The notes beneath the pieces are model-generated. The model ran no database searches. It was not told the DNA's origin and saw nothing but the letters and a program-made list of their open reading frames with translations. From assembly GCA_039621445.1 (NCBI GenBank), contig CP154954.1, positions 8,992,634 to 9,056,633 on the forward strand: 64,000 nucleotides of DNA. The letters are read 5' to 3'. This document shows positions 1,807 to 46,561 of the stretch, one piece after another. The DNA is from Euglena gracilis. Lineage: Eukaryota. Within the stretch, counting starts at the first letter, position 1. Every line of letters begins with the position of its first letter. Both the position numbers and the translations under genes were made by a program.

Positions 1807-1947
1807 TACGCTGACTGGCAGCGGAGAGCCCCTGCACCGTTATTACACGGTCGCAGCGTCAGCTCCCGGCTTCTAGTCAACGTCTAAGCAGGTTCTGTAC
1901 GGTATTACCCGTTACAGCCCCTCTGGTGCCAGCACAACTGCTTATTT

Positions 1948-3543
1948 TTGTGGGTTTTTGCTGCTTTTGTCATCAGAAAGATGCAAAGCACAGACCCCAA
2001 CCATCGACTCAACTATGCCTTATTACAGGCATCATTGCAGGACATTGACCAAGAAACAGGGGATTGGAAGTTTTTATGTGAAGGTGCTTCCAGTTCCCAC
2101 GCCGAGGAGGCACAATTGGTTCAATTGTCACAATTGATGCACTTGTCATCATTGACAGTGGTCGGCGATGAGCCCTCCACATCATTGGCTTCAGAGGCCT
2201 CTTCCACAGGCACCTTGCAACAACGGGGGTATTCGCCTCTGTCTGCGGCAACGGTGCAGCTGCGCACACCGGAGAGAGTGATTCCTCCACTGGGCTTCTC
2301 TGGTGATGGTGGGCTGGAAACCCCGTGCCTCTTTCAACCACCACCCGTTCTTCCACCGGCAAGCCCTTACAGAGCCTTGCCACCACCACCCGATCTTGGG
2401 TGCTATCCTGCATTACCTTGGCCACCTGAGACACGCCTAGTGGTACCGGAATTCTCTGGTGCATCCCAACCCATGGATGGCTATGGGAAGGGCACTGGGG
2501 AGCTCCTCATTGCTGAGGATGTGCAGGATATCATTGCTCGGCTTCCAGGGGATCACCCCCTTGTGAGGAAGTTCAACCATGTGCAACAATGCGTTGCAGA
2601 TTGTGCAACCACACTCAGCAAATTGCTCCAGTTTGAGGAGGACAACCAAAAACATGTCTTCACCAAGCTGGAATACTGCTGGAATTACTTGCAGGAAGTT
2701 GGCAAATATTGCCAGAGAAATTTCGAAAGTTCGGGTATTGACCTTGCAAACTTTCGTGAAACCTTTGACAAAATATGCCAACAACTCCCGCAAAACTTCC
2801 GGCAAATTAGTGAATGCATGCATGAAGCGGAAACACAGAATGACTCCAAGTTTCTGCATTTGCATGACTCACTACGACAGTTATCGGGACAAATGGAGTC
2901 CTCTTCATCCGCGTTGTTGTATTTGCAACAACATTTGCATGCACGAGATTCCTCGTCTGCAACAACAAACAGTGGTGGATTTGTGTCTATGGACAATTTC
3001 ACCACATTTTCCGCAACCTTCCATGAATCGCAACACCGCATTATGCAGTTGTGCGATGAAACGGAAAAGTTTCGGCAATTCCAGTCACAAGCCAACGAGA
3101 ATTTTGCTCCCCACACGTATGCGCGGCAGTTGGAGGAGCGACTTTCCCGTTTGGAGCAGAAAACCTGTTATTGTGACGCAAATCGGGTTGGATTATCCAA
3201 TCTGAGCGCCAAAGTCGCGGAAGTGGCACAACGGCAGGATTCCCTGCAGTTGCAGCCGCAATGCGACATTGGCGGGATTAACTCGGCCATTGCGTGTTTG
3301 CAACAAAGCTTTTCCGCACTTTCCCACCGAGTTCCAGACATTAGCGGTATAGGGGTTCTCAGGCAGCATAATGCGGCAAATGAACTCCGACCTGTGGCTT
3401 TCTTCAGCCGGAAGCTACAGGGCGACAACGGGAAAGGTCAGGTTAAATGGAGCATTCGCGAAAAGGAGACATGTGCCATTGTGCTTGTTCTACAGAATTC
3501 CGCAGCTGGACAGCCAGCAGCTTGGTCCAGATACTCGTGTTGA
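1948..3543 (+). pseudogene. Gag-like coiled-coil ORF fused by deletion (~3355) to an RNase H fragment
   Basis: 531-aa ORF; Pro-rich N-terminus, Q/L-rich helical body, then abrupt switch to RPVAFFSRKL...IREKETCAIV (Gypsy RNase H). Confidence 0.65.
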
Positions 3544-5200
3544 CGGATCATGAGAGCCTTCAACACTGGTATACTCAGGACCTGAACAAGGCCATGTCAT
3601 CAGTGGGCAGAAGATGCCGATGGCATGAGTTCTTGATCCAGTTTAACCTGGTGGTTATCTATACCCCAGGTCACACACAAAGTTGCGGATCCTCTCAGCC
3701 GAGCCCCCTGGTATTATCCGGGGAACCCGGATGAGGGCGATGCGACTTTTCATGGCAGCCATGAGGCACCAGTTCGCACGTCGATCCGACGCTGCGGACA
3801 ACATGCTCGATTCACTACCCGTTTCCTGGGTATATCGCAGCATCGCCATTTCACCATTGCGTGGAAGGCGCCGGCGTGGACGCACTGCCGGACCCCGTCG
3901 CATTACGCGTACGGAAACTCCTACTCCCCTATTTTTCCGCGAACAGGATTATTCGCGTGACCCTATTTCTAGTACCATTGTGAATAGACTTCGTAATGGT
4001 GAATCCATGGAGAATTACTCTCTATCACCATTGCGCCTTATTTTCCGGAATGATTCTGGTTATAAATATTGTACACCCCAAGACCTGGTTGATGATGTGA
4101 TTTTGAGCTATCACAAGGTGGGTCGCAGATATTTAACAACCCTGAGTGAAAATGAATTATATTCGCGCTGTTTGTAAATTTCGCAACGGCGCCAAATTTG
4201 TCCGGCTGTAAAACCGCGCAGAGGTACACCCCCCTGGTACATGTACTTTTTCCCCATACCACCAGACATCTTTACGTCCCTCTGCATGGATTTTCTCGAA
4301 CTTGAACCTTGCAAAGGATCAGATGACAAAATTTACGAATACGTTTTTGTTGTCGTATGCCGCTGAGTGGGTACATAGTAGCCATTCCATGCCGGAAGGC
4401 AGGGTTGACAGCCCAAATTTTGGCATCCATATACCTGGAGAAATGTATCTGCTTAATGGGTTTACCGAACGAAATCGTGAGTGATCAAGATCACTTGCTC
4501 TCTTCGCGGTTTTTCACAACTTTCTGCGGTTTACTCGGCATTGAGCAGCATTTTTCCATTATATACCGCACGGAAGGCAATGGTAGAGCCGAGGCAGCCG
4601 TGAAATCCGTTGTCAATATGATTCGCATTTCACTGGGAATGATATCCCCTCGGAGAGACCCGCCCGAAGTAGCGTCAGCTGTGAAACGTGGTTTGCAGAA
4701 GTGGAATCACTCTGCTCTGCAGTCCAATCAGGTATCACAGAAATTTATTCCAACAAACGGAAATCGTTTTTACTGACCTTCAACACACCTGTGTATAGTC
4801 CAGGTGACCGCGTGTGGGTACGGAATAACCGCACCCGCATGCAATCTTCCAAGCTAGATCCTCTTTGGCTCGACCCATGCGAAATACTGGAGAGGTTAGG
4901 TAGTAGCGGGCGATATAAAGTTGCTTAACCAAACGGGATTGAAGACGTCCATATGGACGACTTCAAACCGTACCTAAGCCCCCCAGATGGAAAAGATATC
5001 CCCTGCCTATATTTCAAGCCCCGTTCCAGATTACCTGAAACGGACGACTTGTGGTCGATAAGATAATAGACCACAAGGTCGACAGGGGTGTGCACTACTG
5101 GAAAGTTCGTTGGAAAGGGTATGGGCCAGACGAGGACACTTGGGAGTCAGCATCCAGTTTTTTTGGATATATCCAGCAGGATTGGAAGCTGTGTAACAAG
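3351..5200 (+). pseudogene. B1 pol remnant: RNase H C-terminus, integrase, chromodomain
   Basis: LTDHESLQHW; EIVSDQD and GNGRAEAAV (DDE core); [31 protein letters not shown] (chromodomain); several frameshifts, stops and small deletions relative to B2. Confidence 0.9.
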
Positions 5201-5988
5201 CACAATAACATAGACATAAAAAAAACACTTTCTGAAACGATTTCGTTTTGGAGAATGTGTGTGTTTTATGTGAATGTTTCGTGTTTATACCCCCCCCTGC
5301 ACTTCCTTATTTCTCTATCTTTCTCGCAGAGTTTTTGATTAAGATAGAAGCCTTCCTTTATCAGTGCGCCAGCACTCAAACCGACTGACAACAAGGTTTC
5401 CCTTCGTTGCAGTCGTCGTTCGGGTAGCATCATGCTGCCTGGGCACGGACCTGGACCAGGTCCACCATGGCCGCAGCCTTCTGGCGCGCCATACCCCCAA
5501 TACCCTCAGCATGCTGAGGCCCCGATTCCGTGTGCCCCACATGCTGAGAGGGTTTCAGCCCCGGTAGCCACGGCGGCAGGTGGATCCCATAGTGGTGGAG
5601 GATGAACCTCCCCACCGTGTGGCAGCCCGACCGCCCAGTGCAGCTCCTGTCCAGACTGGGGATATCCCCCGTCGGCAGGAGACTCCCTACTACCACATGG
5701 CACCTCCGGGAACCGAGCAGGATGAGCTTGCTCGGCACTTCCTGCAGGAGCCAGTATTCGCGTCTGAAGAGCACCGGACGAGGTATTACTCCTCTCTGGC
5801 TGCCCTTCAGGGCCGTGGATACACCCGATACCATCCGTACCAGCCTCAGCTGCGGGTGGCTACCCCGGTATTACCGGGTGAGCCCCCGGCAGGTGTGGCA
5901 GTATTACCTGCCACCCTGAAGCGCGACAGGACTACAGAGAACCTTACCCCACAGCCCAGGCGACCCAGACCACGGGACGCGGAAGGCG

Positions 5989-7257
5989 GTGTGGCGATGC
6001 AAGTGGAATCCAGCCAGGACACGCCGGCTGGACGACCACCGGAAGAGGCACAGGTGGGCGATGAGCCGTCCTGTTGCCGCTATGCCACCGCCGACCCCTC
6101 GGGTATGGAAGGAGCCGCGACCCCCTGCGTCGAAGCCAAGCCCACGCCAGACTCCTGGCCAACGCCCAGGCACGCCATCACCGCGGTGTGCAGCGGGTCG
6201 GCCAGGTCCCTCCCCGGAGATGGAGTGGGAAGGAACCGAACCGACTCCGGAGGCACCGAGCGCCCGACCCTCTGGTGTTCGCCAGACGGGAAAGGACACA
6301 CGCAAGGCCGAGGGCAAAGGCAAGGGAGAAGGCAAAGGCGTGGCCGGCAAAGGGAAGGGTGATGGTAAAGGTAAGAGAACAGCACGTGAGGAGGAAGAAG
6401 AACCCGCAGAAGTCCTTTCGGACTTTGAGCACATGCTCAGGTTCAAGGAGGAGCCGGAGGACGAAGGCTGGCGAATGCAGCATGATTACCATGTTGCAGG
6501 AAACCGTCCCGTCACCCCTCCACAAGCAGTCATCGATGTGGTACTACGCCACACCGAGAATAGAGTCAGACTATTCCATTACGAAATAGATCTGTACGCC
6601 TTCGAAGGTCAACGTGGCAGACCCTTGCGGGATGCCCAGCCGGGTTTCTGGGAGCTGTGGTTTTGGTTGGGATACCCTTGCCAGAACTGGGGTCTCTTCA
6701 GCGACTCCACTGGTCGCAGTTACCTGCACCAGTTGGGTTTTCGGGAGCAGCGTGTGTTGGCCCGAAGGCTGAACACAATCTTCCACTGTATTCATACAGT
6801 CGGACCCCTCGGCGTGCAGTGGGAATTCTACCCACTACACGCTGACATCGAACGCCTGATCGACGTGTTGTGGTGCAACAACATCCAGGTGTGGCTGGTG
6901 AGCCATTACGGCTCCACCTTCCGCGTTAAGCGTGTTTCCCTGGCTTACCCGCAGAGGTATGACCTCTGCTGTAAGTACTGCCGGCAGGAATTTCCTGTCG
7001 ACTTCTGGGGATTCGGTGTGCGCGGAAGTCCTCCACCGCCTTGGGATAACCCGGTCCTGGAGATGGGACGCCGCATGCTTATGCATGTGTGCCGCGACGC
7101 CCCGGATGTCCAGGGCAAAAGTCGCCGCGTCCACAAGCAGCATATTTTTATGCTGCAGCAGTTCTGGTGCCGAGCCTGGACTACCTATGTCATGGAGGTG
7201 TATATAATAAGACGTACACTTAGACTCAGACGTACCCCCCACACACCCCACACTTGA
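5989..7257 (+). CDS. Unknown accessory protein downstream of pol (GK-rich segment + Cys/His domain); N-terminus probably starts ~5580 across a frameshift
   Basis: 422-aa ORF with protein-level homology to 45552-46400 (GFWxLxFWLG, GPxGxQWE, HYG, CxxC-FPVDFWGFGVRG, HxC, RAW..Y..E.Y). Confidence 0.7.
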   Translation: MWRCKWNPARTRRLDDHRKRHRWAMSRPVAAMPPPTPRVWKEPRPPASKPSPRQTPGQRPGTPSPRCAAGRPGPSPEMEWEGTEPTPEAPSARPSGVRQTGKDTRKAEGKGKGEGKGVAGKGKGDGKGKRTAREEEEEPAEVLSDFEHMLRFKEEPEDEGWRMQHDYHVAGNRPVTPPQAVIDVVLRHTENRVRLFHYEIDLYAFEGQRGRPLRDAQPGFWELWFWLGYPCQNWGLFSDSTGRSYLHQLGFREQRVLARRLNTIFHCIHTVGPLGVQWEFYPLHADIERLIDVLWCNNIQVWLVSHYGSTFRVKRVSLAYPQRYDLCCKYCRQEFPVDFWGFGVRGSPPPPWDNPVLEMGRRMLMHVCRDAPDVQGKSRRVHKQHIFMLQQFWCRAWTTYVMEVYIIRRTLRLRRTPHTPHT

Positions 7258-7604
7258 CCAGTGTAGGCTTAAGGCAGGATGGAGGGTCAGACTCCCCCCC
7301 CCGATCCAGGAGGGGGTGTCGGGCATATATTGCAATAACTGGGTGATCCCAACACAAACAAATAGCATCTGGTGAGAGTATCCAGAGCATAACCCATGAA
7401 ACGGTCCATTCTTTACTTCAAAAAGGCAAGGATTGAATGCAAGCCTGATGGACTGCCTCGTCCTTTGGTAATGATTGTCACAGTCGTTCGTGTTCTTCAT
7501 CCCACATCCTATCCATTTTATACATCTTACCTTTTTTCGAGTTTTTTCTGGAGCAAATGAAGAAAGAATAACATCTGACTAAATAACATCTAAAAGCGGC
7601 TTAG

Positions 7605-8309
7605 ATGGTATTTTTTCTGCACGTTATTTTTTCCTATGACAGTATGAATGAATCTCAAAAAAAATCAGACTGCAAAGAAGAGCTTCAAAGAACTTCCAAG
7701 AAGGCAGCTGAAACCGGGGAAGGTGGAGACACACAAGCAGCTGAATTTCAAAATCTCCCACTCAACATGAGAATCGCCATGGACCATGGACAACTGTGGT
7801 CAGGAAGACAAGAAGACAGAGGGAAAATATCACCACAGGTCCAACAAACTCCCCCCCTCTTTCTATGTCCCCCCCTTCCAGGGTACAAGGCAAGGGTTAT
7901 GGCAGCCTTTCAACAAATATCAAAAATACAAGGGATTCAAGTCACCATCAAGGCTATGGCAGCCATCATCCAAAAGGACCGGGGGTCCAGAATCAAGGCT
8001 ATGGCAGCCATCATTCAAAAGGGCAGTGGGCCCAGGGGCAAGGCTATGGCAGCCAGTACCCCAGCCTGGAAAGATTTCACTGGGGAAAGGTATGTCCAAC
8101 TTTCCCCCCAGCAATTTCAGAGACAAACCGCCCAGGAGCAGCAAGCCAATGCCAAAAACAGGCCATGGTGGCCTATATGGGGAATCAAGAGGGACAACGA
8201 AGAGACAAGAGAAGTTTTGGAGAGAAGGCCAATGGCCACCTTCCTGTATGACATGAATTTTTGGGTCACAAATTTGCCCGTTTCTTTTCTGACTGCTTTC
8301 AATTTGTAA
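7605..8309 (+). other. ORF of unknown meaning with 3-4 short tandem repeats (KAMAA..Q)
   Basis: aaggctatggcagcc repeated at ~7895-8055; no recognisable domain. Confidence 0.25.
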
Positions 8310-8810: not shown

Positions 8811-9425
8811 ATTGTCACACCCTGTATCTTCTTTCTTTATGACAAACCAAGGTAAAAGGAAGGCTGTCCCTTCTTCTTGAATTTCCTTTGCTGCCACCGT
8901 CCAGGTCCCGAGGGGAAGGGCCTGGACCGGCAGTCAACCCCCCAGCCGACATCCGCACCAGAGACGAGGCTGGTAAGAGCAGTGGAGTATGAAGAAGAAG
9001 GATGGCGGCTGGTCCAAAGAAATAGAAGAGGCAGGCAGTCTCCAAAGGAAGGGGAGAGACCCTGCCTGCGGCAGGTGTCGAAGGCGAAGCCGACACCATC
9101 GTCCCCATCAACATCACCGAGTGTGCCGAAGGCGAAGGTGGCATCACCGTCCTCATCAACATGAAAGGCATCGGCAACGAAGAGACCATCGATCTCATCA
9201 ACGCTGACGGCATGGGCAACGAAGACAGCATCGAGATCGAGTCTACCACGATCTACGTCATCGCCATCAACATCACCGACAACGTCATCACCGAAGGCAT
9301 CACCACGTCTCCACAAGACACCACCACAAGAAAAGCAAGCACCGGCGAAGGAGGTGAAGAAAGCACCGGCGAGGAAGGAGAAGACAGAGCCGGTGAAGAA
9401 GGCGGCGAAGAAAGAGAAGGAAAGA

Positions 9426-10025
9426 TGGGCGCTGGATCTGTTCTCCGGAACGGGAAGTGTGAGAAGAGCGCTGGAGAAGATGGGCTTCAAGGTGATCAGG
9501 GTGGACTGGGATGAGAAGTGGAAGCCGGACATCGTGGCCGACGTGAGGAAGTGGAGGTTCTGGGAGCAGTACGCTCCCGGCCACTTCGAGGTCATCGCGG
9601 CGTCCCCGCCCTGTACCGAGTACTCCACAGCCCTCACCACCCGCAAGAGGAGGCTCCGCATGGCGGACGCGGTGGTGAAGGCCACGAGAGAGCTGGTGGA
9701 GTACTTGGCGCCTACACGGTGGTGGATTGAAAACCAGAGGTTCGGCTTGCTGCGGTGGCGGCGAGTCCTGCGCGGAGTACGGTATGTGGATGTGGACTAC
9801 TGCCGCTTCGCTGAGTACGGGTATCGCAAGCCGACCCGCTTCTGGGTCAGTGACGCGATGGCGAAGCAGCTGGACGACGTCATATGTGGTGGAAAGTGCG
9901 ACAGCACGGTGGAAGGACCAGACGGCGTACGACGACATCGGCTGCAGTTGGGAGGCAGTGGCGAGCGCAGATGCACAAGGGAGGAGGCCTACCGCATCCC
10001 GGAGGGGGTGGTGCGGTACCTGTGC
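9426..10025 (+). CDS. C5-cytosine DNA methyltransferase domain in A1 pol
   Basis: Motif I ALDLFSGTGS, motif IV ASPPCTEYS (catalytic Cys), motif VI WWIEN, DYC..YGYRKPTRFW, C-terminal AYRIP; in frame with protease ALIDSGA. Confidence 0.92.
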
Positions 10026-10129
10026 CTCGGGGTGAAGGCACGGGAAGAGGCGGCGGCGGCGGAGGAGGCGAAGAAGGTGCGGAAGGTGGTGGTGCGGCCG
10101 TGGCAGCACCTCCCGAACCGGCCGTTCAC

Positions 10130-12360
10130 GGTCGGCCGGATGCAGCACCGTTGGGGGTGCTACCAGCTGCTGGTGGACGTGGAGGTCGAGGCAGGCGGGA
10201 TGAAGATCCAGGTGAAGGCCTTGATCGATTCGGGGGCGCAGACCTCCCTCGTGAAGAAGGAGCTGTTCCCGGAGTCGGTGTTCCAAAACAAAGGGAACAA
10301 GACCCTTGGTGCTGCGCACGGTGAGCGGAGAGGCACTACCCGGAGGACAACGAGAAGCGGAGCTGAAGCTGTCGTTCGCGGCCCAGACCGACGACGAGGA
10401 GCGGAGACCGAGGACGTGGACCACGAAGGTGGTGGCGTACGACGGTTGCATCAGCACGGATCTGATCCTGGGGTATCCGTGGCTCCGGGAGAACCGGCTG
10501 GATGTCCAGCCTTGGCGCGACACCTTGCAGCTCCACGCGGACCCCAAGTGGATCCTGAGGCGGCGTGGAGACGAAGAGAAGAAGGAGGAAGATGGCAATG
10601 AAGACGAAGACGAGCTGGACGGCTACCTCTCCACGGTGAAGAAGATGCGGCAGCTGACCACGGAGGAGGCAGCAGTCCGAGAGGTGGCGGTGATGGTGAA
10701 GGAGGCCGAAGAAGCGGCGAAGGCGGTGCGAGGGGTGGTGGAGACAGAAGACGACGTCGACCATCCCTTGGCACGGCAGCTGCGGGACGAGATCATCAAC
10801 GAGTTCGAAGTCCGGGTGTTCCGTGAGCGGGTGTGGCCGTGTCCTCCGGCGCGAAGGGTGGGAAGGCGGCGATGATGCTGAAGCCGGGGGCAACTCCGGT
10901 AGTGGGCCGGATCATCAACCTCAAGGGCGAGCGGCTGGAGGCCCTGAGGGAGATGGAGCGGGAGTGCCTGGCGCGACGGCAAGCTGGAGGCGGGGCGGGG
11001 GCCGTGGAGGGCGGCCGCCTTCCCCATCCGCAAGAAGTCGGGCAAGTGGAGGCTGGTGTGCGACTACAGCTTGACCAACAAGATGCTGCAGATGAAACCC
11101 TACCCCCTACCGCTGACGGAGGACATCGTGAGCAAGCAGGCGAAGTGCCAGATCTTCTCGACGGTGGACCTGCGGGACGCCTTCCACCAGGTGGCCATGG
11201 CGGAGGAAAGCCGACCCATCACCAACATCCACCTGCCCGGCGGCCTCTGGCAGTGGACCGTGGTGCCCCAGGGCATCAACGTCGGTCCGCCGCTGCTCCA
11301 GAGGGACATCGCCGCGACCTGCCGCAACGTCTCCGCCCACACCCACCCCTACTTCGACGACATCCTGGTGAGCACGAGGCGGCTCCCGGGGTGGAGCGAC
11401 GAGGAGCTGATCAGGCGGCACGCGGGGGATCTGCTTGAGACCCTGCGGGCGCTGGAGGCGGATCGGTGGGTGGCGGACTAGAAGAAGGCACAGCTGTTGC
11501 GCAAGAGGGCGGAGGTCGTGGGGCACGTGCTGGGGGGGGGGCAATCGCGTCTCCGCGAGCGGCAAGCTGCCGGCGGTGCAGCGGTGGCAACTCCCGGCCA
11601 ATGTGACGAGTTTGTGCACCTTTCTCGGCCTCTGAAATTATTATTCGGGGTATGTACGTATGTACTCGGAGCTGGCCGCCCCCCTGCAGGAGAAGGCGAA
11701 GCTGCAAAGGGATTTGTCCCGGGCGGGCAGCAAGCACCCCTTAGGTGGTCCGCGGCCGAGCTGGAGGCGTTCGAGAAGCTGAAGGCAGCGCTGGTGGCGG
11801 ACCTGGAGCTGTGGCACGTGGGCATGAACAAGCCGTTCGTGTTGCGCACGGACGCCTCCGACTATGCGGTGGGCGCCGTGCTGGAGCAGCTACCGAAGGT
11901 AGAGGGCATCCCCTCGGTGGAGGAGCTCCTGAAGCCCGGGGCGACGGTGGCGGTGGGCTTTATGAGCAGGAAGCTGACGGAGGGGCAGCGGCTGCGGTGG
12001 GGCACCCGCGACAAGGAGACGTACGCGGTGGTGAGCGCGCTGGACAAGTGGGGCGACTACATCACCAGGCAGATGGTCCTGGTCCTGATTGACCACCGGT
12101 CCCTGGACAGCTGGTACAAGGAGCACGTCTCCCGGGGATCGGGACCGCAAGGCCAGCGGGCGAGGTGGCACTCCAAGCTGAACGAGCACATGGTGGAGGT
12201 GGTGTACGTGCCGGGGGAAAAGAACGAGGTGGGGGACGCGCTGTCGCGGTGGGCGTACCCGGCCAGCCAGGAGTACCGAGACTCCTGCTGGCACGGGACG
12301 GCAGCGGACGCCGAGGAGATGGAGCAGCAGATCCGAGAGAAGAAGGCCGCGGAGGGCAGC
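10130..12360 (+). pseudogene. A1 protease, RT and RNase H
   Basis: ALIDSGAQTSL, DLILGYPWL, CDYSLTN..PLPL, VDLRDAFHQV, PYFDDI, FVLRTDASDYAVGAVLEQ, RDKETYAVV; frameshifts near 10290, 10860, 10980, 11540 and stops. Confidence 0.93.
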
Positions 12361-28896: not shown

Positions 28897-28928
<32 letters not shown>

Positions 28929-34978: not shown

Positions 34979-36308
34979 GCACTTGCACCCTGACTCCCAA
35001 CCATACACAGCATTCCTGGCATCCAAAGGTGAGTACCAATGGACGGTAGTCCCCATTGGTGTTAAGAATGGCCCAGCCATGTTTCAACACATTATTCAAT
35101 GGGTTCTACGCGACTTACCGTTTGCCATTGTGTACATTTCTTTCGCGAACTTATAAAATTTTGCGTCCACATCCGCAGCAATGGACAGCGGAAAGCCGCT
35201 ACGAGCAAACCCTAAGCCATTAAGAAATGGACCCCTGAGGTAATCAAAAAGGATTACTCAGGTCAAAGGATTTTTGAAATTAGCCCAATACTACGCGATA
35301 TATATGAGGGACTTCCCGAAAAACGCGGTGCCTCTCACCAAACAGCTCGAAAACCGGGATGTCGACAACACCAAAGTCATTTGGGATGACCAAATGCGCG
35401 AGGCCCTTGAGAAAAAAAAGGTTTTGCTTTTGGAGAACGTTGTCCTCGAAATCGCCGACCAGTACAAACCAATGTTCTGGAAGTCGACAGCAGCGATTAC
35501 GCTGTTGGCGGAGTTATTAGCCAGCAGAACGCGGCGAATGAACTCCGACCTGTGGCCTTCTTCAGCAGAAAGCTACAGGGCGACGACGGTAATGGTCAAG
35601 TCAAGTGGAGTATACGCGAGAAGGAAACCTACGCAATCGTGCTTATACTCCAGAAATTCCGAAGCTGGGTCGCCAGCAGCCTCGTCCAGATCCTCGTCAA
35701 GACTGATCATGCGAGTCTCTAACACTGGTACACCGAGGATTTGAACAAGTCCATGTCATCGGTCGGAAGGCGACGCAGATGGCATGAGTTCTTTAGTTAA
35801 TTCAACCTTGTGGTTATTTATACCCCTGGTCACACACATAAAGTAGCAGATCCGCTCAGTCGGGCCCCTTGGTATCAACCTGGATGAGGGAGACGCGTTT
35901 TTTCATGGAAGTCAGGAAGCTGACGAATACGCACATCGAAACGACGCTGCGGACAACCTTTTGTATTATTTTTCCTTTTCACAACTATTCCTGGTCGCAC
36001 CAGTGCGCGGAAGGCGCCGACGTGGAAGCACGTCCGGACCCAGCGTACGCGCACGGAGTCCCCTTCCTTACTGTTCTTTCGCGAATGGGATTATAGTCGT
36101 GATCCGGTGTATGACAGCATTGTCTCCAGACTTCGTAATGGCGAAGTGCTGGAGAATTACACTCTTTCACCTTTACGGCTGGTTTTTCGCAATGAATCTG
36201 GTTACAAATATTGTATTCCCCAGGGCCTGGTTGATGATGTTATTTTGTGCTATCACAACCAGAATCACCCTGGGGCCCCCAAACTTCTTTCGTTGGTGGG
36301 CCGCAGGT
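34979..36308 (+). pseudogene. Gypsy family B fragment (B3): RT C-terminus, RNase H, start of integrase; probable target of A1
   Basis: HLHPDSQPYTAF..KNGPAMFQ, RPVAFFSRKL, homologous to 40335-41815; stops and deletions. Confidence 0.88.
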
Positions 36309-37579: not shown

Positions 37580-38410
37580 ACGGGGCTGTTGTCAGCAGTC
37601 ATAATTTTGATGGGGTACTTGGATTTCACCAAGAGGGAGTTGGGAATGAATCCCGTTCGAAAGAGAAGGGGGATTCACCACCCTGTGTCGACCAAAATTT
37701 TGCATTTGGTGGAAACATTTTGTGTTTGGATTTCCGCTTGGACCAAAAGTTCCATGGGTGGTAGGCAAAGTGCAGGATCCGGTGTAAAATTGTTGTCTCT
37801 CCAACTATTCCAGGATCCCGTTCCTACTTTGCTCAGCATTCCAGGCAGAAATTTGGAGTGGGGGGTGGGGGACCCGGAATTTTTCCGGGTACGGACCAAA
37901 AATGCAGATGGGCAGGTCCTACTTCTGTCTGTTCATCAGCCCAGAGGTCCGTTCCCACAGACCTCGGGCTCCCCTACTCCAAGTCCGATTCAGCACTTCG
38001 GCTGTTTATCGTTTTCTTGTGTGAGTAGATAGCGCGCAATGCGCGGACTGCATTGTGGTCATCCTCCAATGAGGATTCGGAGTTCTCATCCCCCTCCCTG
38101 CCCGAAGCCGGGGTGCCCTCCTCTAAAGAGGAGATTTTGAACCGGACCTTGTGTTTTCTATTGTGTTTTGTATAATTGTGGTGACGTTGGTTCGGGCGGG
38201 GAGAGCGAGAACGGCAACATTTGGAGGAGTGGTGGTTGTGTGATCCACAAAGGGAACACTTTTGTCGATTTTGTGACTTTTGTCGGTTTTGTGATGGTCT
38301 TTCACCCCTTGGAGGCCTTGGTGAACGGAATCCCGTTCGACCATGGGTACCCGGAGTTACGAATTGGGTCTGACGTAGTTTTGGGTTTTCCATTCTTGCG
38401 TCAGAACCGC
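37580..38410 (-). pseudogene. Inverted LTR-retrotransposon fragment: Gag C-terminus with CCHC knuckle, then protease
   Basis: CSLCGSHNHHSSKC; TAG + hairpin; ELLVQAEI..KILVDTG..IKIMTADNSP. Confidence 0.75.
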
Positions 38411-39370
38411 CTTGTTGTGGACTGCCCCTCCCTCGGTTTGCGCAATACTACACGCACACAGCTCACTGCACCGAATTTCTCCCCGAAGGCACCTTCCCAG
38501 ATGTCCTCCCGCCTGGCCACAACGTTTTCTACAACCGAAAACACCGTTTCCTACACCAGGGGTAAAGAGAAAGCTGCCCCCCCCCCCTACCCACTACACT
38601 TGTACTGCACGTTTCCCATTCGGTAGGGAAAGCGAGTAGCTTAACCCCCCACGTTCCACTTGGTTCCAAGGTGAAAGCCCAAAGGCCTGAAGAAATTTCG
38701 GTGTCGAGTAGCCGCCCAGCTGCACAACTTTTACGTTTTCCACCAGGTGTGTCGATTTCGAACACCCCTGTACACCCCCCAGCAGCTACAACTTCCAACA
38801 CCCCTATGCACACACTGCACATGACTGACATGCACTACCAGACCGACACTTCCTACCAATGCGCACATTGCCGGAGAATTTCCACACAACCTGATTTCGA
38901 CTGTGGATGTATTTTTGAACCTCCCAAACTAATCGCTTTACTCAACAACCAGAGTACACTTGGTACCGGAACCTTTACCGAGGGTACCCTGCCCGCTGAA
39001 CGAGAACACAACACACCGGGTTGTTACCCGTTGTGTGTTGAAGTACATCCACAATTGGACAAAGGCGGAATCGCGTCCCTGTTCGGAATCGAGAGAATCG
39101 CGCTGGAAGATCTCCAATGGCAGAAAGCCAATCTCTCTGACCCCTAATGGCAGAATGCCAACCCCTCCAATGTCCCTGCATACAAGTGGCAGAATGGCAA
39201 ACGACATTTGTCCTTTATACAATACACGTCATACACTAGTCACAATGCCTGATGAAGTGTCTTCGGACACACCGCATTACCGATGTGGCTCGGTAAACTG
39301 TGTTTCAGCCCTCCACAGGACTGAAACCGCAACAGTTTTCGCGAACCGCATCTGGAATGCGTTCCATTTT

Positions 39371-39775
39371 GGACAATGTCGCATTTTGGAAACTTGGTTT
39401 TCCAAAATCGCGCAAATCGCGAAGCCGATAGACCTACAATTGGAGATTTATGTGTTCTCATCCAAAGCACATTCTCGTTTACCCAACAACTTGTCAAGCC
39501 ATACAAATGTGTTTGACAAGCTTTGGGGTGATGTGGTCCTGTGGCTACACCCACCTCTAAAACTTATCTCTTTTGTTGTTGACAAGATCCTTCGGGATCA
39601 AGCACGCGGTGTGCTACTCATTCCTAAAAATCCCGAAGCGGAATGTTTCCAACAACTGACGTATGTCACTTTTCAGTGGTGGGATTTACCGAACGACACC
39701 CCTTTGTTTGAAGATTTTTGCGGTGTCATGTTACCACCATTGAAAGAAATCATTTTTCGTGTTTGTTTCTTTGAT
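39371..39775 (+). pseudogene. Dam/DIRS-MT-like amino-(N6A/N4C) methyltransferase domain before RT
   Basis: IYVFSS..H..NVFDKLW..LWLHPPLKLISFVVDKILRDQARGVLLIP..WWDLPNDTPLF fits the DLFAS..N..DA..W..NPPW.LI..VL.K..ILI.P pattern; aligns with 59900-60290. Confidence 0.72.
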
Positions 39776-39858
39776 TTGATGCATTCGGAACGGTTGACCA
39801 CACTGACATATTCCTACGGGATAAAGGTCAGAATGACCAAACATACCAACTACCCGCA

Positions 39859-42800
39859 GTGATAGAAAGCGGTGGTCAACATCCCAAATCACAAGAACTA
39901 AGTACAAAGGTCAACCGCGAATTCAGTGATGTTTTAGAACATCCTATCTATCCCCATGACATAGATCCTGCAATTCGCGGACCTTTTGGTGTCTTTAAAA
40001 TAGAACTTAAAGAAGGTGCACAGCCCATGCACCGAAAATTCTTTCGCTGTACAGGCGAAAGAGAACAAGCTCTCAATACAATGATCGAAAAACTGATTGA
40101 ACGAAAATGGATCATACCCTCCAAAAGCGAGTGGTCCTCACAAGGTTTCGTGGTACCCAAGCCTCCCGATGCTTCTGGAGAGAAGAAGTGGAGACTTGTG
40201 CTGGGTTACCGATACTTGAACTCGCAGACAAAAGACGATCCATTTCCGTTACCACTTATCGAAGACCTGATTACAAAACAAGCGGAAAGCCGCCTGTGGT
40301 TGATTTTCGACTTAGAGGATGGTTTTCACCAGATGCACTTACATCCTGACTCACAACCATACACCGCATTTGTAACCTCCCGCGGAGTTTACCAATGGAC
40401 GGCGTTACCAACGGGTCTTAAGAATGGCCCAACCATGTTCCAAAGAATGATACAATGGACTTTACGAGACTTACCGTTTGCAATGGTATATAGATGACGT
40501 GCTCATAGGCACACCTCCTCCACTTACGATTTCGGGTAGTGATATCCTTGATATTCACTACCGCGATATACGTTCCGTACGGACAACGTTTCAAAAACAT
40601 TTGCTTTTTGTCAAAGCTGCGAAAATGCATTTATTCCGCGAAACGATAAATTTTTGAGGACACATTCTTAATAACGGACAAAGGAGAGCATCTCCGAGCA
40701 AACTCGAAGCTATAAAGAAGTGGACACCTGAAAACATCAAGACAATCACCCATTTAAAAAGATTCTTGGGTTCGGCGCAGTATTACGCGATTTACATGAA
40801 CGATTTCACGAAAATCGCGGTACCACTGACGCGACAACTCAAGAATCGCGCTCCTGACAATACAAAGATACAATGGGATGATACAGCGAGAACCGCTAAG
40901 GACAATTGAACAATTGATTTTGGACAACGTTGTACTTGACATTGCCGACCCGTACAAACCATACGTACTGGAGGTCGACAGCAGCGACTATGCCGTCGGC
41001 GGTGTGTTGAGTCAACATAACTCTTCCAATGAACTGCGCCCTGTAGCATTCTTCAGCAGAAAGCTACAAGGTAAAGACGGAAAGGACAAGTCAAATGGAG
41101 CATACGAGAAAAGGAGACGTACGCCATTGTCCTTATCCTACAAAAATTCCGCAGTTGGGTCGCCAGTTCACTCGTACTGATACTAGAGTTGACAGTCCAT
41201 GAGTCTCTCCAACACTGGTACAAAGAAGACTTGAACAAAGCCATGTCCTCAGATGGCCGAAGATGCCGTTGGCACGAATTTTTGAGTCAATACAACCTGG
41301 TGGTAGTTTACACACCACGTCATACTCGAAAAGTCGCTGACCCACTTTCACGTGCACCCTGGCATTACCCTGGTAACCCTGACGAGGGTGATGCCACGTT
41401 CCACGGAAGTCGCGAAGTCGACGAATACGCAAGGCGCGCAGACGCCGCTGACAACCTGCTTGACAACTTTCCTGTTTCGCGGATTTGGCGGCGGATGCTG
41501 ATAGCCCCCGTACGGGGAAAACGACAACGCGGCAGAGTGCCGGACCCCGCCAAGTTACGCGATCAGAATATCCATCCCCTCTCTTTTTTCGTGAATGGGA
41601 TTATTCCAAGGACGACTTTTACAATGATGTCGTACAAAGATTACGTAATGGTGAATTGGTTGAGAATTATACCTTATCACCTTTACGTTTAATTTTCGGG
41701 AATGATACTGGATATAAATACTGCATACCCTGTGACTTGGTTGATGACGAATTTTTATGTTATCACAACCAAGGTCACCCCGGGGCCCCCAAACTTCCTT
41801 CTTTGGTGGGTCGCAGATACTGTAAAACCCTGACCGAAAAGGATTTGTACAAGCGCAGTTTACAAATTTCGCAACGGTGCCAGATTTGTCAAGCTGTGAA
41901 ACCGCGCAGAGGTACCCCCCCTGGTACGTTGGATTTCTTCCCCGTACCAAATGACATTTTTACTTCCCTCGGCATGGATTTTCTGGAACTTGAACCTTGC
42001 AAAGGAACAGATCACAAAATTTACGATCACGTTCTTGTTGTCGTCTGTCGGCTGAGTGGGTACATAGTAGCCATTCCATGCCAGAAAGCAGGGTTGACAG
42101 CACAAGTTTTGGCACGAACGTTTTTGGAAAGATGCATTTGCCTCATGGGTTTACCGAATGAAATCGTGAGTGATCAAGACCATTTGTCTACTTCTCGATT
42201 TTTTACAACTCTTTGCGATTTACTCGGAATTGAGCAGCATTATTCTATTATTTTCTAAGATCGTCCAAAAGGAAATGGTCGCGCTGAAGCGGCAGTGAAA
42301 GGTGTAGTCAACATGCTACGACTCTCACTGGCCGAATCGCACAATGCCTGGCTACAAGTACTACCCTGGAGTTTATTTCATATCAACACTTTACCGGGTC
42401 TGATATTACAATACTCACCGTATAAAATCGTCTTCGGACGAGACCCCCCAGCCATGGGCGACATCCCGTCAGAACGACCCGCTCGTTCCAGCGTGAGTTG
42501 CAAAACATTGTTCTCTGAAGTAGAATCATTGCGCACGGATGTGCAAAAGCGCGTAGTCGCTATACACTTACAAAAACAAAAAATAATTCTTACAAGATTA
42601 CAAATCACCGGTATACAACCCAGGTGACCGCGTGTGGGTTCGGAAGAGTAGAACCCGCATGCAATCCACGAAGTTGGACCCCCTCTGGATCGGACCATGT
42701 GAGATCCTTGATCGGTTGGGTACAAGTGGGCGCTATAAAGTCGCTTTACCCAACGGTGTCGAGGATGTGCACATGGATGACTTCAAACCATACCTGACTC

Positions 42801-43006
42801 CACCAAACGGTAAAGCAATACCCTGCCTCTACTTCAAACCACGGTCAAAACTGCCTGAAACAGACGATTTCGTCGTTGACAAAATCCTCGACCACAAAGT
42901 AGACAGGTGTGTACATTACTGGAAGGTGAGCTGGAAAGGCTATGGTCCCAAAGAGGACACTTGGGAACCTGCAACTAGTTTTGTTCATTACATCCAACAG
43001 GACTGA
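39859..43006 (+). pseudogene. pol: B2 pol: RT, RNase H, integrase, chromodomain
   Basis: KWRLVLGYRYLN, FDLEDGFHQM, GLKNGPTMFQR, Y(I)DD hit by a frameshift at ~40490, EVDSSDYAVGGVL, H..GH..CQICQ, GMDF/VSDQD, chromodomain 42870-43000. Confidence 0.93.
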
Positions 43007-43377
43007 AAATTATGGAACAAACGAAATAGCATAGACATTTCTGTAAATACCTTCTAAGAGAGGATGTACAAAGAGGTACAAGATTTGTCCATAGCGTGGA
43101 CTTTCGACAAAATGTATAATGGGCGGCTGCCAAAATGTACAACGGGCGGATGCCAAACCATTTTGTCCCTAGCGAAGGACTTTTCGTCAAAGGAATATGG
43201 TTTTGAGCTATACATTTTTTCACTTGGTGCTACAATTTTGATTTTACAATTAGTGCAAACATACAAATATTTTTGTGTGTGCGCACATTTGCTGGCATGC
43301 GTCCAATGTTACCGTACAATGCTTTTTTCTCTGTTTCCCCACAGCTCAGCACTTGCTACTATCTTCTCTTTTTTAAG

Positions 43378-46300
43378 ATGGACGCTGGAGGAAGGGGACC
43401 TGGTCACCCATCCTCCCAACCGTATGTTCCCCCTGGACAACCTCCTACGGGTGGACCCCCTCACCCACAACCTCCTTCGGGAGGACGAGGACTTGCACTC
43501 CCTCGTGGAGGGCAAGTCCCCATGCGGCATGTACAAGCTGCTTCGGCAGCAAGGCCCGTAGTGGCAGCTCCTCAGGTACAAGCTGCTTCGGCAGCAAGGC
43601 CCGTAGTGGCAAATTCCCCTGTGACTCAACGTGCGGCTCCGCATGTTGCTCCATAACAAACTACACTTGCAGGCTTACAACATCAAACAATGATTCCACA
43701 ACAAACGGAATCTGCCTATGAACAGTTTGCGGTGCCGCAACCGCGGCCTCCAAGGAGATACGATCCGGCCAGTAGCAGTAGCCAACGCGCTGCTTTTGCG
43801 GTGGTCCTGTGATGCCTCGGTTCCCCAAGTACATTGGTGAACTGACAACGGCATCAACAGATACAATTCGTAACGCTCTGCGCATGTGCACAGAGGACAG
43901 ACCGGGTCCCTTCATCTGAGTGATGTGGGATTCGTACTGCCGACAACTGCTTGCAATCGCCAACAAACCTATCGCCACCTGGGACAGGTGGTCCCAGAGT
44001 ACGATAGCAGGTAGAATCTTCTTCCAACCCGGAGAATCCGTTTTTCCAGACAATGTAAATCTCCGGGATCTGGGAGTCCTGGTCCCGTCTGTGCTGCGCA
44101 GAGTGCATCCTGTGGGTGCTTACGCGGAACACATGCGCCGCTATACTCGTGGACTCACAGAAAGTGAGATGGGTGGTGTCCAAATGCAAGAACCAGTATA
44201 CTTACCACAACAACGTTTTTCCTCTCCCCCACGCATGCCGCTTGCACGGAACTGGGAGGCTAGTATGCCATCACAATACGCTATGGAGGCCGAAGAGCCA
44301 TACGATGAAAATTTTGCCGACGAGATGGCCGAAGAGCCTTATGACGAGTATACAACGGCAGAACCTGAGCCGGAGTATACCATGGAAACAGACGAACCAC
44401 CTCAAGCACCCCAACCACCACAACCCGTACACACTCAACCATCTGTACAATCTCAACCACAGCCACCGACAACCCCCGCCGTACCGCTGCCGGAACCGAC
44501 AGCGATACGAGTTGTCGGAGAAAATCCCCTGCGTCCCGTAGAGGAAACTATGAACGAGTGCCACAATCTCTGGATTTCGCTTACACAACCAAAGGCGAAC
44601 AGTACCTTCCCCTCGACAAAATTTACGAACTTGGATCCCATTTGGGAGCCATCAATGTAAAGGGAGTGATAATGGATGGCATTGGTCCAAACTCCAAAAT
44701 TTTGGGTATACCCACCTGGGCACTACCCGAAGTTTTGCGTGTGGATGCACCACCACATCAACCTGGTCCAACGGAACAACTCGCTTCGGCGTCGAATCTT
44801 GTGCCGCCGGTATCTCAACCTACTCCGGCACCACAAACAAAGCCTGTACAAGCAGTTTCGACTGCACGTCAAATATCTTCTCAGACCAACCTGTACCTAT
44901 ACAAAGAACAGGACCCCCTGCTCAAGCCACGGGGTCGGCACGTACAAGAGCACCCGCACAATCTACAATTCCTCTTCGAGCACCTCCTGTTACGACACCT
45001 TCACAACGGGTTCGGCTGGACAAACACAACCACCTATTGAACCGGGACAACCTTTCTCGGGTCAATCCAGGTTTGAGTCGCCAGCACAACGCGCCACGTA
45101 CAAGGAAGCCCTACAACATTTGACAGCCCCAGCGAAACCATACAACGTTGACGCGCGCAAACGTCCGCGTGGACCGGAGTTTGCAACACCACCACAAACA
45201 CGTCCAACGCCAGACACACAACGTGGTCGCTTGGACGACAATCCACAAAGCGCGCAGGCGCAACGTGATCGTCAGGAAAGCGATCACCCGCCGATCCCGC
45301 CCAACGTACAACGACTTTTTACGAAATGTATCACGAAATGTGTCCAGACAAACCGTCCGATGACATTGATGGACATTACACCGCTGGTGTAACCGTTACA
45401 ATGTGAAGAAAAACACAAGCATTCCGATAAGACGGTGCATACCGTTGGAATGAACAAGAGCGCGAAGCCGCAAAAGGACAGAAAGGCCAGAAAGGCAAAG
45501 GAAAGAGCGAAGGCTCACAACCGCGTTACGACCTGGACGTACAATTCATGATTGACCATCTGTTCTGCATCTCAGACTGATGTGATAAATCATGCACGAG
45601 TACTTGAGGAACAACACCCTTGGGTTATTGCTCCTGAAGTACATCACCACATGGTCAAACTCTACAAGGAAAAAGCACGTGGCTTTTTCTTCGATGGTAC
45701 AATTTCGTGTTACGAAAACCAGGATGGCATCAACAAATTTCAGGGTTTCTGGCAACTACTTTTCTGGCTCGGATTCCATTGCTTGGACTTCGGTTCATTC
45801 GCAATGCCCGCGAGCAAGGCACGCTACTTGCCACATCCAAAACTACAATACGGATGGGAGTCATCCCTTGACACACTAAAGACAATGTTCGACAACATCC
45901 GCGAAATCGGACCACACGGCATACAATGGGAAGTATTCCCACTTCCAAAGGATATACAACTGGTGACACACGAAATGTTCTGTTACAACCACCAAATTTT
46001 CCTCAACGAACACTATGGCCCCCACTTCCAAGTGGTCGTCATCGACCTGACAGACCCACAAAGATTCGTCGTTTAGTGCGCACACTGCCTCCACAAGTTC
46101 CCGGTGGACTTCTGGGGCTTTGGGGTACGCGGTCGGACAACCGACGCCCAAACGCACCAAGGGCGCAGCCCCACCAACGAGAATTGGCGGAGGCCCAACA
46201 ACAACGAAGACTACTCGGACACATTTGCCACAATCCCCTCGAAGTTAGGGAAATCGGATACGCCAGACGAAACCACCGACAAATGCTTCTGCACATGCAG

Positions 46301-46561
46301 ACGTTCCATTGGAGAGCATGGGTGTGCTATGCACTGGAAATCTACAACTTATTCAACGCGAAACAACCACTCCCGCAAGAATACCTCCCTCTTCCACCTG
46401 CATGGGACGAAGACGGAAAACGGAAGTACATCAAACGCCTGTTTGGCGAAACCCTCCGAAGAGAGGACTTTGCCCCATTTTTCAAGGGCAAACGTACAAA
46501 AAAGGATGGGCTGGCCATCCCAATACTGGACTGGCTTCCTCGCGGATCGGGAGGAAACTAA
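43378..46561 (+). pseudogene. B2 3' accessory ORF (fragmented); conserved core 45552-46400
   Basis: ATG after a pyrimidine tract-AG; Pro-rich N-terminus; core homologous to 5989-7257, with a stop at 46074 and a frameshift. Confidence 0.65.

Follow-up and report, generated by a model that had tools for sequence, protein, structure and literature searches.

A probable third open reading frame with a domain of an unnamed family, 3′ of pol in a chromodomain-bearing Ty3/Gypsy lineage

Two diverged elements of a Ty3/Gypsy retrotransposon lineage, here termed family B, share a conserved coding sequence 3′ of the pol chromodomain, which is probably part of an element-borne third open reading frame (ORF3) of a new domain family. 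Both elements, B1 and B2, are located in a stretch of 64,000 nucleotides of Euglena gracilis DNA that was analyzed as a whole and is called the window below. In the model proposed here, family B would be a chromodomain-bearing Ty3/Gypsy lineage whose elements carry, 3′ of pol and in the same orientation, a third gene. The ORF3 protein would be composed of a long proline-rich half, for which no conservation between B1 and B2 was detectable, a short linker that is first basic and then acidic, and a globular C-terminal domain of roughly 250 residues that belongs to an unnamed family. Neither B1 nor B2 is able to make this protein, and both are dead remnants. A description of ORF3 or its domain was not found in the literature.

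The shared domain was delimited by tblastn, using the 445-codon B1 ORF at positions 5920 to 7257 as the query and the 64-kb window as the target. A domain of approximately 230 residues is common to this ORF and to positions 45624 to 46351 of B2, with 36 to 38% identity and a joint E value of 3.8e-35. Specifically, residues 198 to 369 of the B1 ORF match positions 45624 to 46133 with 37.7% identity over 175 columns, and residues 381 to 430 match positions 46196 to 46351 with 36.5% identity over 52 columns. The window contains no third match to the B1 ORF (next best E value, 0.59), and a family HMM detected no other copies of the domain in its six-frame translation. All six motifs that a preliminary description of this DNA had listed were found in B1 and in B2, yet in B2 a frameshift somewhere between 46134 and 46195 distributes them over two reading frames. 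The GK-rich segment said to precede both cores is present in B1 (6289 to 6387, followed by an acidic run at 6388 to 6402), whereas the basic run of B2 at 45396 to 45548 is rich in lysine, arginine, and alanine. The same description had called the flanking DNA unalignable. Indeed, blastn aligns B1 3361 to 5217 to B2 41010 to 43038 at 72 to 75% and nothing further 3′, ending after the chromodomain; tblastx, however, yielded matches in several frames at 6769 to 7026, and this block therefore retains some DNA similarity. The starts of ORF3 in the two elements are weakly similar (14 residues, 64%; tblastx).

For 195 aligned codons, the identities at codon positions 1, 2, and 3 were 0.58, 0.62, and 0.37, respectively, the third differing from 0.60, which is close to the average of positions 1 and 2, with a Fisher p value of 7.6e-6. 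Since the first and second positions are conserved and the third positions are near random, this pattern reveals past purifying selection, in line with the earlier proposal that the sequence was kept by selection. In ORF3, pS is saturated and dN amounts to 0.56 versus 0.10 to 0.22 for pol, i.e., 2.5 to 5 times as much; the corresponding amino-acid identities are 42% and 70 to 82%. Homology and codon-position pattern together show that the domain located 3′ of the chromodomain in the two diverged family-B elements is, as had been suggested, real conserved coding sequence.

Table 1. Positions of family-B features in the window
Feature	Positions	Strand	Basis or remark
B1 pol remnant (RNase H, integrase, SH3-like, chromodomain)	3352..5220	+	Pfam RT_RNaseH, SH3_Tf2-1, Chromo; blastn to B2
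B1 pol-ORF3 spacer, AT-rich	5221..5431	+	Sequence; copies differ in length at nine places between 5220 and 5357
B1 ORF3, first piece, frame 2, from ATG 5432; Pro/Gly-rich, beginning MLPGHGPGPGPP	5432..5566	+	
B1 ORF3, second piece, frame 3, Pro/Arg-rich	5567..6056	+	Comparison with other copies
B1 ORF3, third piece, frame 1, with conserved domain from about 6400 to 7203	6057..7206	+	
Foreign in-frame tail IIRRTLRLRRTPHTPHT plus stop, outside the family	7207..7257	+	Other copies differ after 7206
B3, a further family-B fragment confined to RNase H through integrase and lacking the tail	35135..36306	+	blastn 69% to B2, 75% to B1
B2 pol (protease end, RT, RNase H, integrase, SH3-like, chromodomain)	38300..43006	+	Pfam
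B2 spacer	43007..43377	+	Two pyrimidine tract plus AG sites, ending 43344 and 43377
B2 decayed ORF3	43378..46561	+	ATG 43378; last-frame stop 46559-46561

The family-B elements of the window are listed in Table 1. B2 pol gave Pfam matches to RVT_1, RT_RNaseH, rve, Integrase_H2C2, SH3_Tf2-1, and Chromo, and the order RVT_1, RT_RNaseH, rve, Chromo is that of a Ty3/Gypsy chromovirus. This pol is broken into many pieces and ends with a stop at 43004 to 43006; its start is approximate, having been judged by eye in the ORF list, as was its protease-like end, which has no Pfam match. The pol remnant of B1 is 5′-truncated and interrupted by frameshifts. LTRs, PBS, and PPT were not found around either B1 or B2, both of which are 5′-truncated, B1 being also 3′-truncated; the position of ORF3 inside the element is consequently unproven by boundaries. 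The upstream ORF of B1 and the middle pieces of B2 showed no similarity to each other or to the rest of the window. In B1, a helix-rich ORF of 480 codons reads in frame into RNase H, and it could be the remainder of a conventional 5′ gag.

B1 was compared with other copies by means of contigs from public sequencing runs, a type of data that cannot show RNA ends. Relative to the other copies, B1 lacks 683 nucleotides at position 5566, which contig 25 of run X17 spans with additional letters and at which loose ends occurred in all four runs. A length difference of 1 nucleotide was observed at position 6056, one base being absent there from about half of the other copies. Addition of 683 nucleotides at 5566 and removal of 1 nucleotide at 6056 exactly account for the offsets of the three B1 frames. 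Because the state of B1 at 6056 is shared by about half of the copies, the long single ORF3 frame may not be the one that is actually used. The B1 copy ends at 7206, where loose ends were seen in runs X15, X16, and X17, and depth falls after 7224; the sequence with which other copies continue past 7206 is absent from the whole window. Stretches beyond 7225 that lack cover in RNA-labelled runs were left out of the evidence. As stated previously, the B1 frame from 5920 to 7257 is open, yet compared with the other copies the gene is deleted, shifted, and truncated. In the DNA run X1, 10,835 contigs lie on positions 4800 to 7700, with a depth of 350k to 1,038k over 4800 to 7224 and of 89k in the next bin, and a 2402-nt contig of an RNA library joins the chromodomain to ORF3. 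The stretch from pol through the domain is one repeat unit of very high copy number.

The decayed ORF3 of B2 has a proline-rich N-terminal half followed by the basic run described above, and its conserved domain is read first in frame 0 and then in frame 2. An in-frame TAG at 46074 to 46076, within PQRFVV*CAHC, was overlooked in the preliminary description. Frame 0 of 43920 to 46133 contains only 6 stops in 738 codons, compared to about 35 expected at 3/64 per codon, and besides these six stops B2 has at least one frameshift. The core of about 280 residues initially taken as the ORF is the C-terminal part of a far longer decayed ORF; an intact ORF3 would span about 800 to 1060 codons.

A search of 1.84 billion representative proteins returned seven matches to the domain, five of which are real relatives. 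The other two (P0007 and P0008) were dropped, being repetitive proteins whose matches consist of 6 and 4 short segments, respectively. Two relatives are full-length, namely P0004 (332 residues, E value of 6e-7) and P0006 (470 residues, E value of 4e-5), which match one another with an E value of 2e-37; P0002, P0003, and P0005 are fragments with 48 to 57% identity. A word-indexed protein search gave no relatives at similar lengths, and an alignment query recovered P0006 only. Longer, fused forms were not found among the proteins, which is weak evidence by the search's own rating. The back-translated motif pattern had 0 matches in metagenome, viral, and genome contigs. Of the 267 pattern matches from a locus search with P0004 and P0006, a single locus (L001) was confirmed, and it was rejected as a relative; its contig carries a helicase plus a primase-type zinc finger.

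The best-kept part of the domain reads YPQ-x5-CxxC-x6-DFWG...HxC. The pattern PQ-x5-CxxC-x6-xFWG is found in 6/6 sequences covering this region, with HxC downstream in five of them, and FWxLxFxLG[YF] and PxG[IV][QR]W are each found in 4/4 sequences. Sequence and structure prediction suggest a zinc ribbon at CxxC...HxC and a long helix after it; such a ribbon would imply zinc binding. Specifically, the AlphaFold2 models of the B1 core and of P0004 display three strands around CxxC (pLDDT 60 to 78) and a long helix thereafter; their overall pLDDT is low (52.0 and 48.1, respectively), and they do not establish the zinc ribbon. The sole recurring matches, weak and below threshold, were to the zinc-ribbon proteins Lar, primase zinc finger, RPP21, and YPEL5. 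Consistent with the initial view that the domain belongs to no known family, no match rose above noise in Pfam, NCBIfam, or PHROGs, and no PDB entry was found by sequence or profile, the best profile match (HCV NS3 protease, E value of 0.9) being judged due to chance. The AlphaFold and Foldseek comparison that had been recommended as a check was run and named no fold, with best E values of 1.3 and 1.4 for the PDB and 0.1 for BFVD. A wide VIA-align search reached a Z score of 5.2 at best, confined to the C-terminal helix; such absence of a fold match does not show that the fold is new.

In both elements, the ATG of ORF3 is positioned 210 to 370 nucleotides past the pol stop and is followed by a Gly/Pro-rich sequence. 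A pyrimidine tract plus AG is located at most 101 nucleotides upstream of this ATG in B1 and B2, compared to a background of 0.8 such sites per kb; these sites were spotted post hoc. In the scan of the B1 spacer, one site ends at 5329 to 5331 and a second, TTCCCTTCGTTGCAG, at 5412, whereas in B2 the AG at 43377 directly abuts the ATG. Judged by their sequence, these sites look like splice acceptors, and via them ORF3 might be expressed from a separate cis- or trans-spliced mRNA. Spliced or leader-joined reads were not seen in the contigs, which are blind to RNA ends. Retroviral and errantiviral env and accessory genes sit 3′ of pol, and as in those cases the acceptor-like site upstream of ORF3 would permit a subgenomic mRNA. 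Unlike env, ORF3 of family B has neither a signal peptide nor a membrane segment, and no splice junction was observed in the contigs. Membrane segments are expected at Kyte-Doolittle values from 1.6 upwards, and the 19-residue maxima all remained below this threshold (0.98 for B1, 1.25 for B2, 0.78 for P0004, and 1.59 for P0006), in agreement with the preliminary description.

ORF3 could alternatively be a gag- or nucleocapsid-like protein that is encoded after pol or derives from a tandem neighbor across a short shared LTR. As a displaced gag it would be ordinary, and we regard this as unlikely. In keeping with this alternative, no gag is recognizable upstream of B1 or B2, although the 480-codon ORF of B1, in frame with RNase H, could fill this position. 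ORF3 does possess a basic GK-rich run plus a Cys/His motif, and an ORF at 15975 to 19769, read as the gag of a neighboring element with no Pfam support, ends in a very similar GK-rich tail; the motif, however, is CxxC-x20-33-HxC and not a CX2CX4HX4C knuckle, and hmmscan detected no gag or capsid family at an E value of 0.1 for B1 and B2 or of 10 for the database relatives. While the spacers of 211 and 371 nucleotides could in principle accommodate a very short LTR, and De Bruijn contigs are able to join pol, LTR, and gag, the depth of the spacer (610k to 624k) is no higher than that of its flanks and lacks the doubling expected of an LTR. Moreover, the spacers are unrepeated elsewhere in the transposon-filled window.

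Quite unlikely, in our estimation, is a domain without a role for the element, i.e., a host gene or other mobile element that adjoins family B or was transduced once. Such an origin would fit P0004 and P0006, which are free-standing predicted proteins with their own methionine and no pol domains, whereas the fragments P0002, P0003, and P0005 are further decayed copies, as expected of a repeat. The element boundaries were not found, but coverage is unbroken and of very high copy number across pol, the spacer, and the domain. Divergence is much greater in ORF3 than in pol; nevertheless, the same order and strand are retained in two lineages whose synonymous divergence is saturated and whose pol differs by 25 to 28% at the DNA level, and selection on the coding frame persisted through most of this divergence.

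We consider it very unlikely that ORF3 extends the Pol polyprotein at its C terminus, as the methyltransferase does in some green-algal chromoviruses. The chromodomain and the first ORF3 piece of B1 share frame 2, but the frames of pol and ORF3 differ in B2, and both copies have stops just past the chromodomain, that of B2 immediately after IQQD. A preprint documents domains appended to pol at its 3′ end (10.64898/2026.05.21.726589); in family B, both tails restart at an ATG, and the intervening stretch is AT-rich, with the nine length differences among copies noted in Table 1.

A degenerate C5 cytosine methyltransferase is close to refuted: the ten best named ESM Atlas clusters for the B1 core were all PF00145, B1 contains GYPCQ, which we take to be reminiscent of methyltransferase motif IV, and other elements in the window bear methyltransferase-like domains, but the best cluster score of 0.88, with 136 shared features, is below 0.9, ten of ten is also reached by a third of shuffled proteins, the feature search with P0006 gives DUF6698 and DUF6532 instead, hmmscan found no Pfam match at an E value of 0.1 for B1 and B2 or of 10 for the database relatives, hhalign against the methyltransferase-bearing ORF of the window gave a probability of 1.4%, and PCQ is missing from B2, P0004, and P0006. 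The ESM Atlas leads for B1 and P0006, being mutually discordant and below the trust marks, were set aside.

Returning to an element-borne ORF3, its product might tentatively be regarded as a nucleic-acid- or chromatin-binding accessory factor serving the element rather than as an enzyme or envelope protein, a guess in which we place little confidence; it might conceivably take part in assembling RNPs, in nuclear targeting, or in evading host silencing. More doubtful is a lineage-specific accessory gene combining its own spliced mRNA, a new fold, and an action on chromatin or the host silencing machinery. For such a gene, spliced-leader trans-splicing would yield a capped monocistronic message out of the element transcript, ORF3 would join the chromodomain, DNMT-like, and Dam-like modules of neighboring elements in a retrotransposon "epigenetic toolkit," and the distant homologues that stand alone would represent either the origin of ORF3 or descendants domesticated from it. 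Extra genes are rare in LTR retrotransposons, and the understood cases (env, dUTPase, and methyltransferases) reveal how an element handles its host. The ORF3 domain is of an unnamed family with no solved relative, yet it is carried by an element of enormous copy number. Were ORF3 to encode an accessory factor translated from a spliced message of its own, a protist retrotransposon would be using a retrovirus-like expression strategy, and the study of transposon-host conflict would gain a new handle.

Third genes of other LTR retrotransposons offer partial parallels. In bdelloid rotifers, LTR retrotransposons carry a third ORF after gag and pol; these captured ORF3s are of diverse types, and not all of them resemble an envelope gene (Rodriguez, Kenefick and Arkhipova 2017, PMC5408684). 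The rotifer ORF3s described there belong to known families (paramyxovirus-type fusion glycoprotein, GDSL esterase, and DEDDy exonuclease), whereas ORF3 of family B belongs to none; furthermore, family B occurs in another host group, represents another lineage, and has a chromodomain. The plant Retand elements are Ty3/Gypsy elements with kilobases between pol and the 3′ end and with TRP28 ORFs in this region, encoding a conserved domain of unknown function that is thought to be DNA-binding and regulatory (Vicient 2025, PMC11963269). The Retand ORFs are antisense and reside in non-chromoviruses of flowering plants, whereas ORF3 of family B is in sense orientation after a chromodomain and has no detected sequence relation to any Pfam family. 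DAM-LTRs and "EpiLTRs" are chromovirus-like elements with methyltransferase modules (10.64898/2026.05.21.726589); like family B, these are protist or algal Ty3/Gypsy elements with an accessory module beside a chromodomain. In contrast to them, the family-B tail has no recognizable methyltransferase and appears to be a separate ORF rather than a domain of pol. Within the window, too, one element combines a DNMT-like domain with a chromodomain and another a Dam-like domain with RT.

Both decayed copies of family B, B1 and B2, a chromodomain-bearing Ty3/Gypsy element, carry a homologous third open reading frame (ORF3) behind the chromodomain, as the preliminary description had proposed. Within the window, tblastn aligned residues 198 to 369 of B1, whose open frame at 5920-7257 comprises 445 codons, with B2 45624-46133 at 37.7% identity, and residues 381 to 430 with B2 46196-46351 at 36.5% identity; the joint E value was 3.8e-35, versus 0.59 for the window's next match. 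A family HMM applied to all six frames detected this conserved C-terminal part of ORF3, the core domain, in B1 and B2 only. At the DNA level, blastn aligned B1 3361-5217 with B2 41010-43038 at 72 to 75% identity, the alignments ending approximately 30 nt past the chromodomain. All motifs listed earlier were found in both copies, and the 19-residue windows of a hydrophobicity scan were all too weakly hydrophobic for a membrane span, in line with the reported lack of a transmembrane segment. Since the tblastn match, the motifs, the limit of the DNA alignment, and the hydrophobicity scan agree, the observation of a shared ORF is confirmed. Overlooked until now was that the B2 motifs are divided between two reading frames, with a TAG at 46074-46076 breaking them. 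The GK-rich segment said to precede the core is present in B1, but the corresponding segment of B2 is Lys/Arg-rich.

A HMMER search of 1.84 billion representative proteins with the core gave seven hits at E values up to 0.001, of which P0007 and P0008, repetitive proteins matched in several short stretches, were dropped as relatives. P0002, P0003, and P0005 are short or partial relatives with 48 to 57% identity and would most simply be further decayed copies. The two full-length distant relatives, P0004 (332 amino acids, E = 6e-7) and P0006 (470 amino acids, E = 4e-5), matched one another (E = 2e-37, 31% over 240 amino acids), and P0004 also matched B2 (E = 4e-7). The motif PQ-x5-CxxC-x6-xFWG occurs in all six sequences covering the region, an HxC downstream of CxxC in five of the six (absent in P0005), and FWxLxFxLG[YF] and PxG[IV][QR]W in four of four sequences each; a basic stretch lies ahead of the domain in B1, B2, P0002, and P0006. 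Pattern scans of three sequence collections with the motifs gave no matches, and the sole locus returned by a search for related loci, a phage-type primase zinc finger, was rejected as a relative.

The proposal that the ORF was kept by selection holds for the past. Over 195 aligned codons of the B1 and B2 cores, identity at codon positions 1, 2, and 3 was 0.58, 0.62, and 0.37, the third position differing from 0.60, approximately the mean of the first two, with a Fisher P value of 7.6e-6, in an alignment whose choice by protein score slightly favors low third-position identity. Synonymous sites of the core are saturated (pS 0.79), dN is 0.56 versus 0.10 to 0.22 in three pol segments, and amino acid identity is 0.42 versus 0.70 to 0.82; by dN, the domain evolves 2.5 to 5 times faster than pol. 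Together, the codon-position identities and the dN comparison indicate purifying selection on the domain through most of the B1-B2 separation. The Pro-rich half of ORF3 gave no alignment at all between B1 and B2.

Contigs of one DNA run (X1) and three RNA-labelled runs (X15, X16, and X17) were mapped to 4800-7700, where 10,835 X1 contigs mark the family as a repeat of very high copy number. Contig depth was roughly even over 4800-7224 (350k to 1,038k per bin) and down to 89k in the next bin. Loose contig ends flank 5566 on both sides in all four runs, and a 2402-nt X17 contig places letters 38 to 802 on 4800-5566 and letters 1485 to 2402 on 5566-6484; therefore, 683 letters present in other copies are missing from B1. 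In X1, approximately half of the depth at 6056 (131,203 of 249,550) lacks one B1 base, which is also missing in the X15 and X17 contigs and kept in the X16 contig. Past 7206, contigs of the three RNA-labelled runs continue with sequence that differs from the window and matches nothing anywhere in it (a 1295-nt X17 contig has just 151 letters on the mapped stretch), and the last 17 B1 codons, 7207-7257, are foreign to the family. One RNA library, with contigs 90 to 95% similar to the mapped stretch, is labelled a leaf-litter metatranscriptome; no habitat is deduced from it. The offsets between the B1 frames agree exactly with both length differences, at 5566 (683 = 2 mod 3) and at 6056, which makes B1 ORF3 look like what remains of one long frame starting at ATG 5432. 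In B2, a Gly/Pro-rich frame begins at ATG 43378, frame 0 contains 6 stops in 738 codons over 43920-46133 (chance expectation, approximately 35), and the last frame ends at 46561. An intact ORF3 would be roughly 800 to 1,060 codons long, far longer than the core. The B1 core had been called still open; its frame is uninterrupted, but with the loss at 5566, the 1-nt difference, and the foreign end, ORF3 is broken in B1, as it is in B2.

Third ORFs are known from other LTR retrotransposons, such as env of errantiviruses. Further cases are the ORF3s of rotifer elements (PMC5408684) and, in plants, the TRP28 ORFs of Retand elements (PMC11963269). ORF3 of family B adds a new type to these, located in a chromodomain-bearing element and containing a domain family without a name. 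No description of ORF3 or its domain was found in the literature covered. On balance, we favor the reading that ORF3 is a third gene borne by the element, with a new domain family. That ORF3 encodes a protein of gag type, or the gag of a neighboring element in tandem, is improbable: the missing 5′ gag and the GK-rich run speak for it, and the flat contig depth over the spacer between pol and ORF3 and the lack of spacer repeats speak against it. Slightly less probable is a neighboring or captured gene, which would have no part in the element. A C-terminal extension of Pol ranks lower still; in both copies, the pol stop lies directly behind the chromodomain, and next comes the AT-rich spacer, in which the mapped contigs of related copies show nine length differences in 140 nt, as non-coding DNA would. 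In a third gene of the element, translation would begin at the ATG of ORF3 itself, possibly on a cis- or trans-spliced message. Each spacer has a pyrimidine tract and then AG near the ATG; because the plus-strand background is just 0.8 per kb (51 clusters in 64 kb), their occurrence within approximately 100 nt of both ATGs is suggestive, with a chance probability of roughly 1 in 100 as judged post hoc. These sites look like splice acceptors; no spliced read was observed among the contigs, a kind of data that by nature cannot reveal one.

The core and its relatives had no match in Pfam, NCBIfam, PHROG, or PDB sequences. The suggested AlphaFold/Foldseek check brought no identification: two AlphaFold models, each from a 5-row alignment, were poor (pLDDT 52.0 and 48.1), and neither Foldseek nor VIA-align gave a significant fold match. 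Common to both models is a layout of helices, three strands around CxxC (pLDDT 60 to 78 there), and a long helix, and the recurrent matches below threshold were zinc-ribbon proteins only. The product of the third gene would combine a Pro-rich, disordered arm with a basic/acidic linker and a globular domain bearing a predicted zinc ribbon; that this domain would bind nucleic acid or chromatin to the element's advantage is a tentative and rather doubtful guess. ESM Atlas returned C5 methyltransferases with B1 (score 0.88) and, with P0006, unrelated DUFs of fungi instead; because these leads conflict, hhalign of the domain against the window's methyltransferase-bearing ORF gave a probability of 1.4%, and the PCQ of B1 is not kept in the family, a C5 methyltransferase identity was rejected, and a degenerate methyltransferase is very improbable.

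Coordinates of ORF3-associated features and of neighboring elements
Feature	Position	Strand	Remarks
551-codon open frame	1888-3543	plus	480 helix-rich non-pol codons in frame into B1 RNase H
Spacer pol-ORF3, B1	5221-5431	plus	AT-rich
Pyrimidine tract/AG, B1	AG ends 5329-5331		second TTCCCTTCGTTGCAG ends 5412
B1 ORF3, frame 2	5432-5566
B1 ORF3, frame 3	5567-6056
B1 ORF3, frame 1	6057-7206
Chromodomain retroelement	9165-15303	plus	first ORF with weak DNMT match (PF00145, E 0.0035), ahead of retropepsin
RT/RNase H of this element	11482-12810	plus
Integrase + chromodomain of this element	13276-15303	plus
1264-codon ORF	15975-19769	plus	no Pfam match; by eye gag
Knuckle ORF	37974-38447	minus	perfect CX2CX4HX4C at ~38215-38258
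Spacer pol-ORF3, B2	43007-43377	plus	AT-rich
Pyrimidine tract/AG, B2	AGs end 43344 and 43377		43377 abuts ATG
815-codon ORF	57791-60238	minus	RVT_1 + weak Dam match (PF05869, E 6e-5)

The window is a transposon graveyard. The first ORF of the DNMT-matching element has DLFSGTG and PPC motifs, and a relative of this element lies at ~21600-26990. Chromodomain elements carrying DNMT and Dam are described for Euglena gracilis and some green algae in 10.64898/2026.05.21.726589, and the Dam-like domain of the 815-codon ORF is of the same kind as in the DAM-carrying retrotransposons treated there. In the 1264-codon ORF, a long middle section resembles a coiled coil and the C-terminal part resembles gag; the ORF ends in a Gly-Lys-rich tail close in kind to the run ahead of the B1 domain and is followed by Pro-rich tandem repeats of 99 nt at 20308-21443. 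Direct repeat blocks at 13395-16126 and 29721-32184 are 100% identical in permuted order, 15488-16126 recurring ahead of the repeat of 13395-15218. This pattern stems either from duplication or rearrangement in the very recent past or from an artefact of the assembly. The 551-codon frame, whose non-pol part resembles nothing else in the window, may be a deletion derivative with a gag-like 5′ part joined to the B1 pol remnant. The knuckle ORF adjoins, upstream, the start of the B2 protease-like sequence on the plus strand, and the B2 5′ end seems to abut, or to be interrupted by, an opposite-orientation fragment of another element. Simple repeat arrays of G-runs and A-runs occupy 32700-34100 and 28800-29100, with periods of ~49 and 45 to 48 nt, and GC reaches 72% at 32001-34000. 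Direct repeats of 300 nt at 49887-50186 and 54263-54562, 98% identical and 4376 nt apart, might flank a short, younger element as its LTRs.
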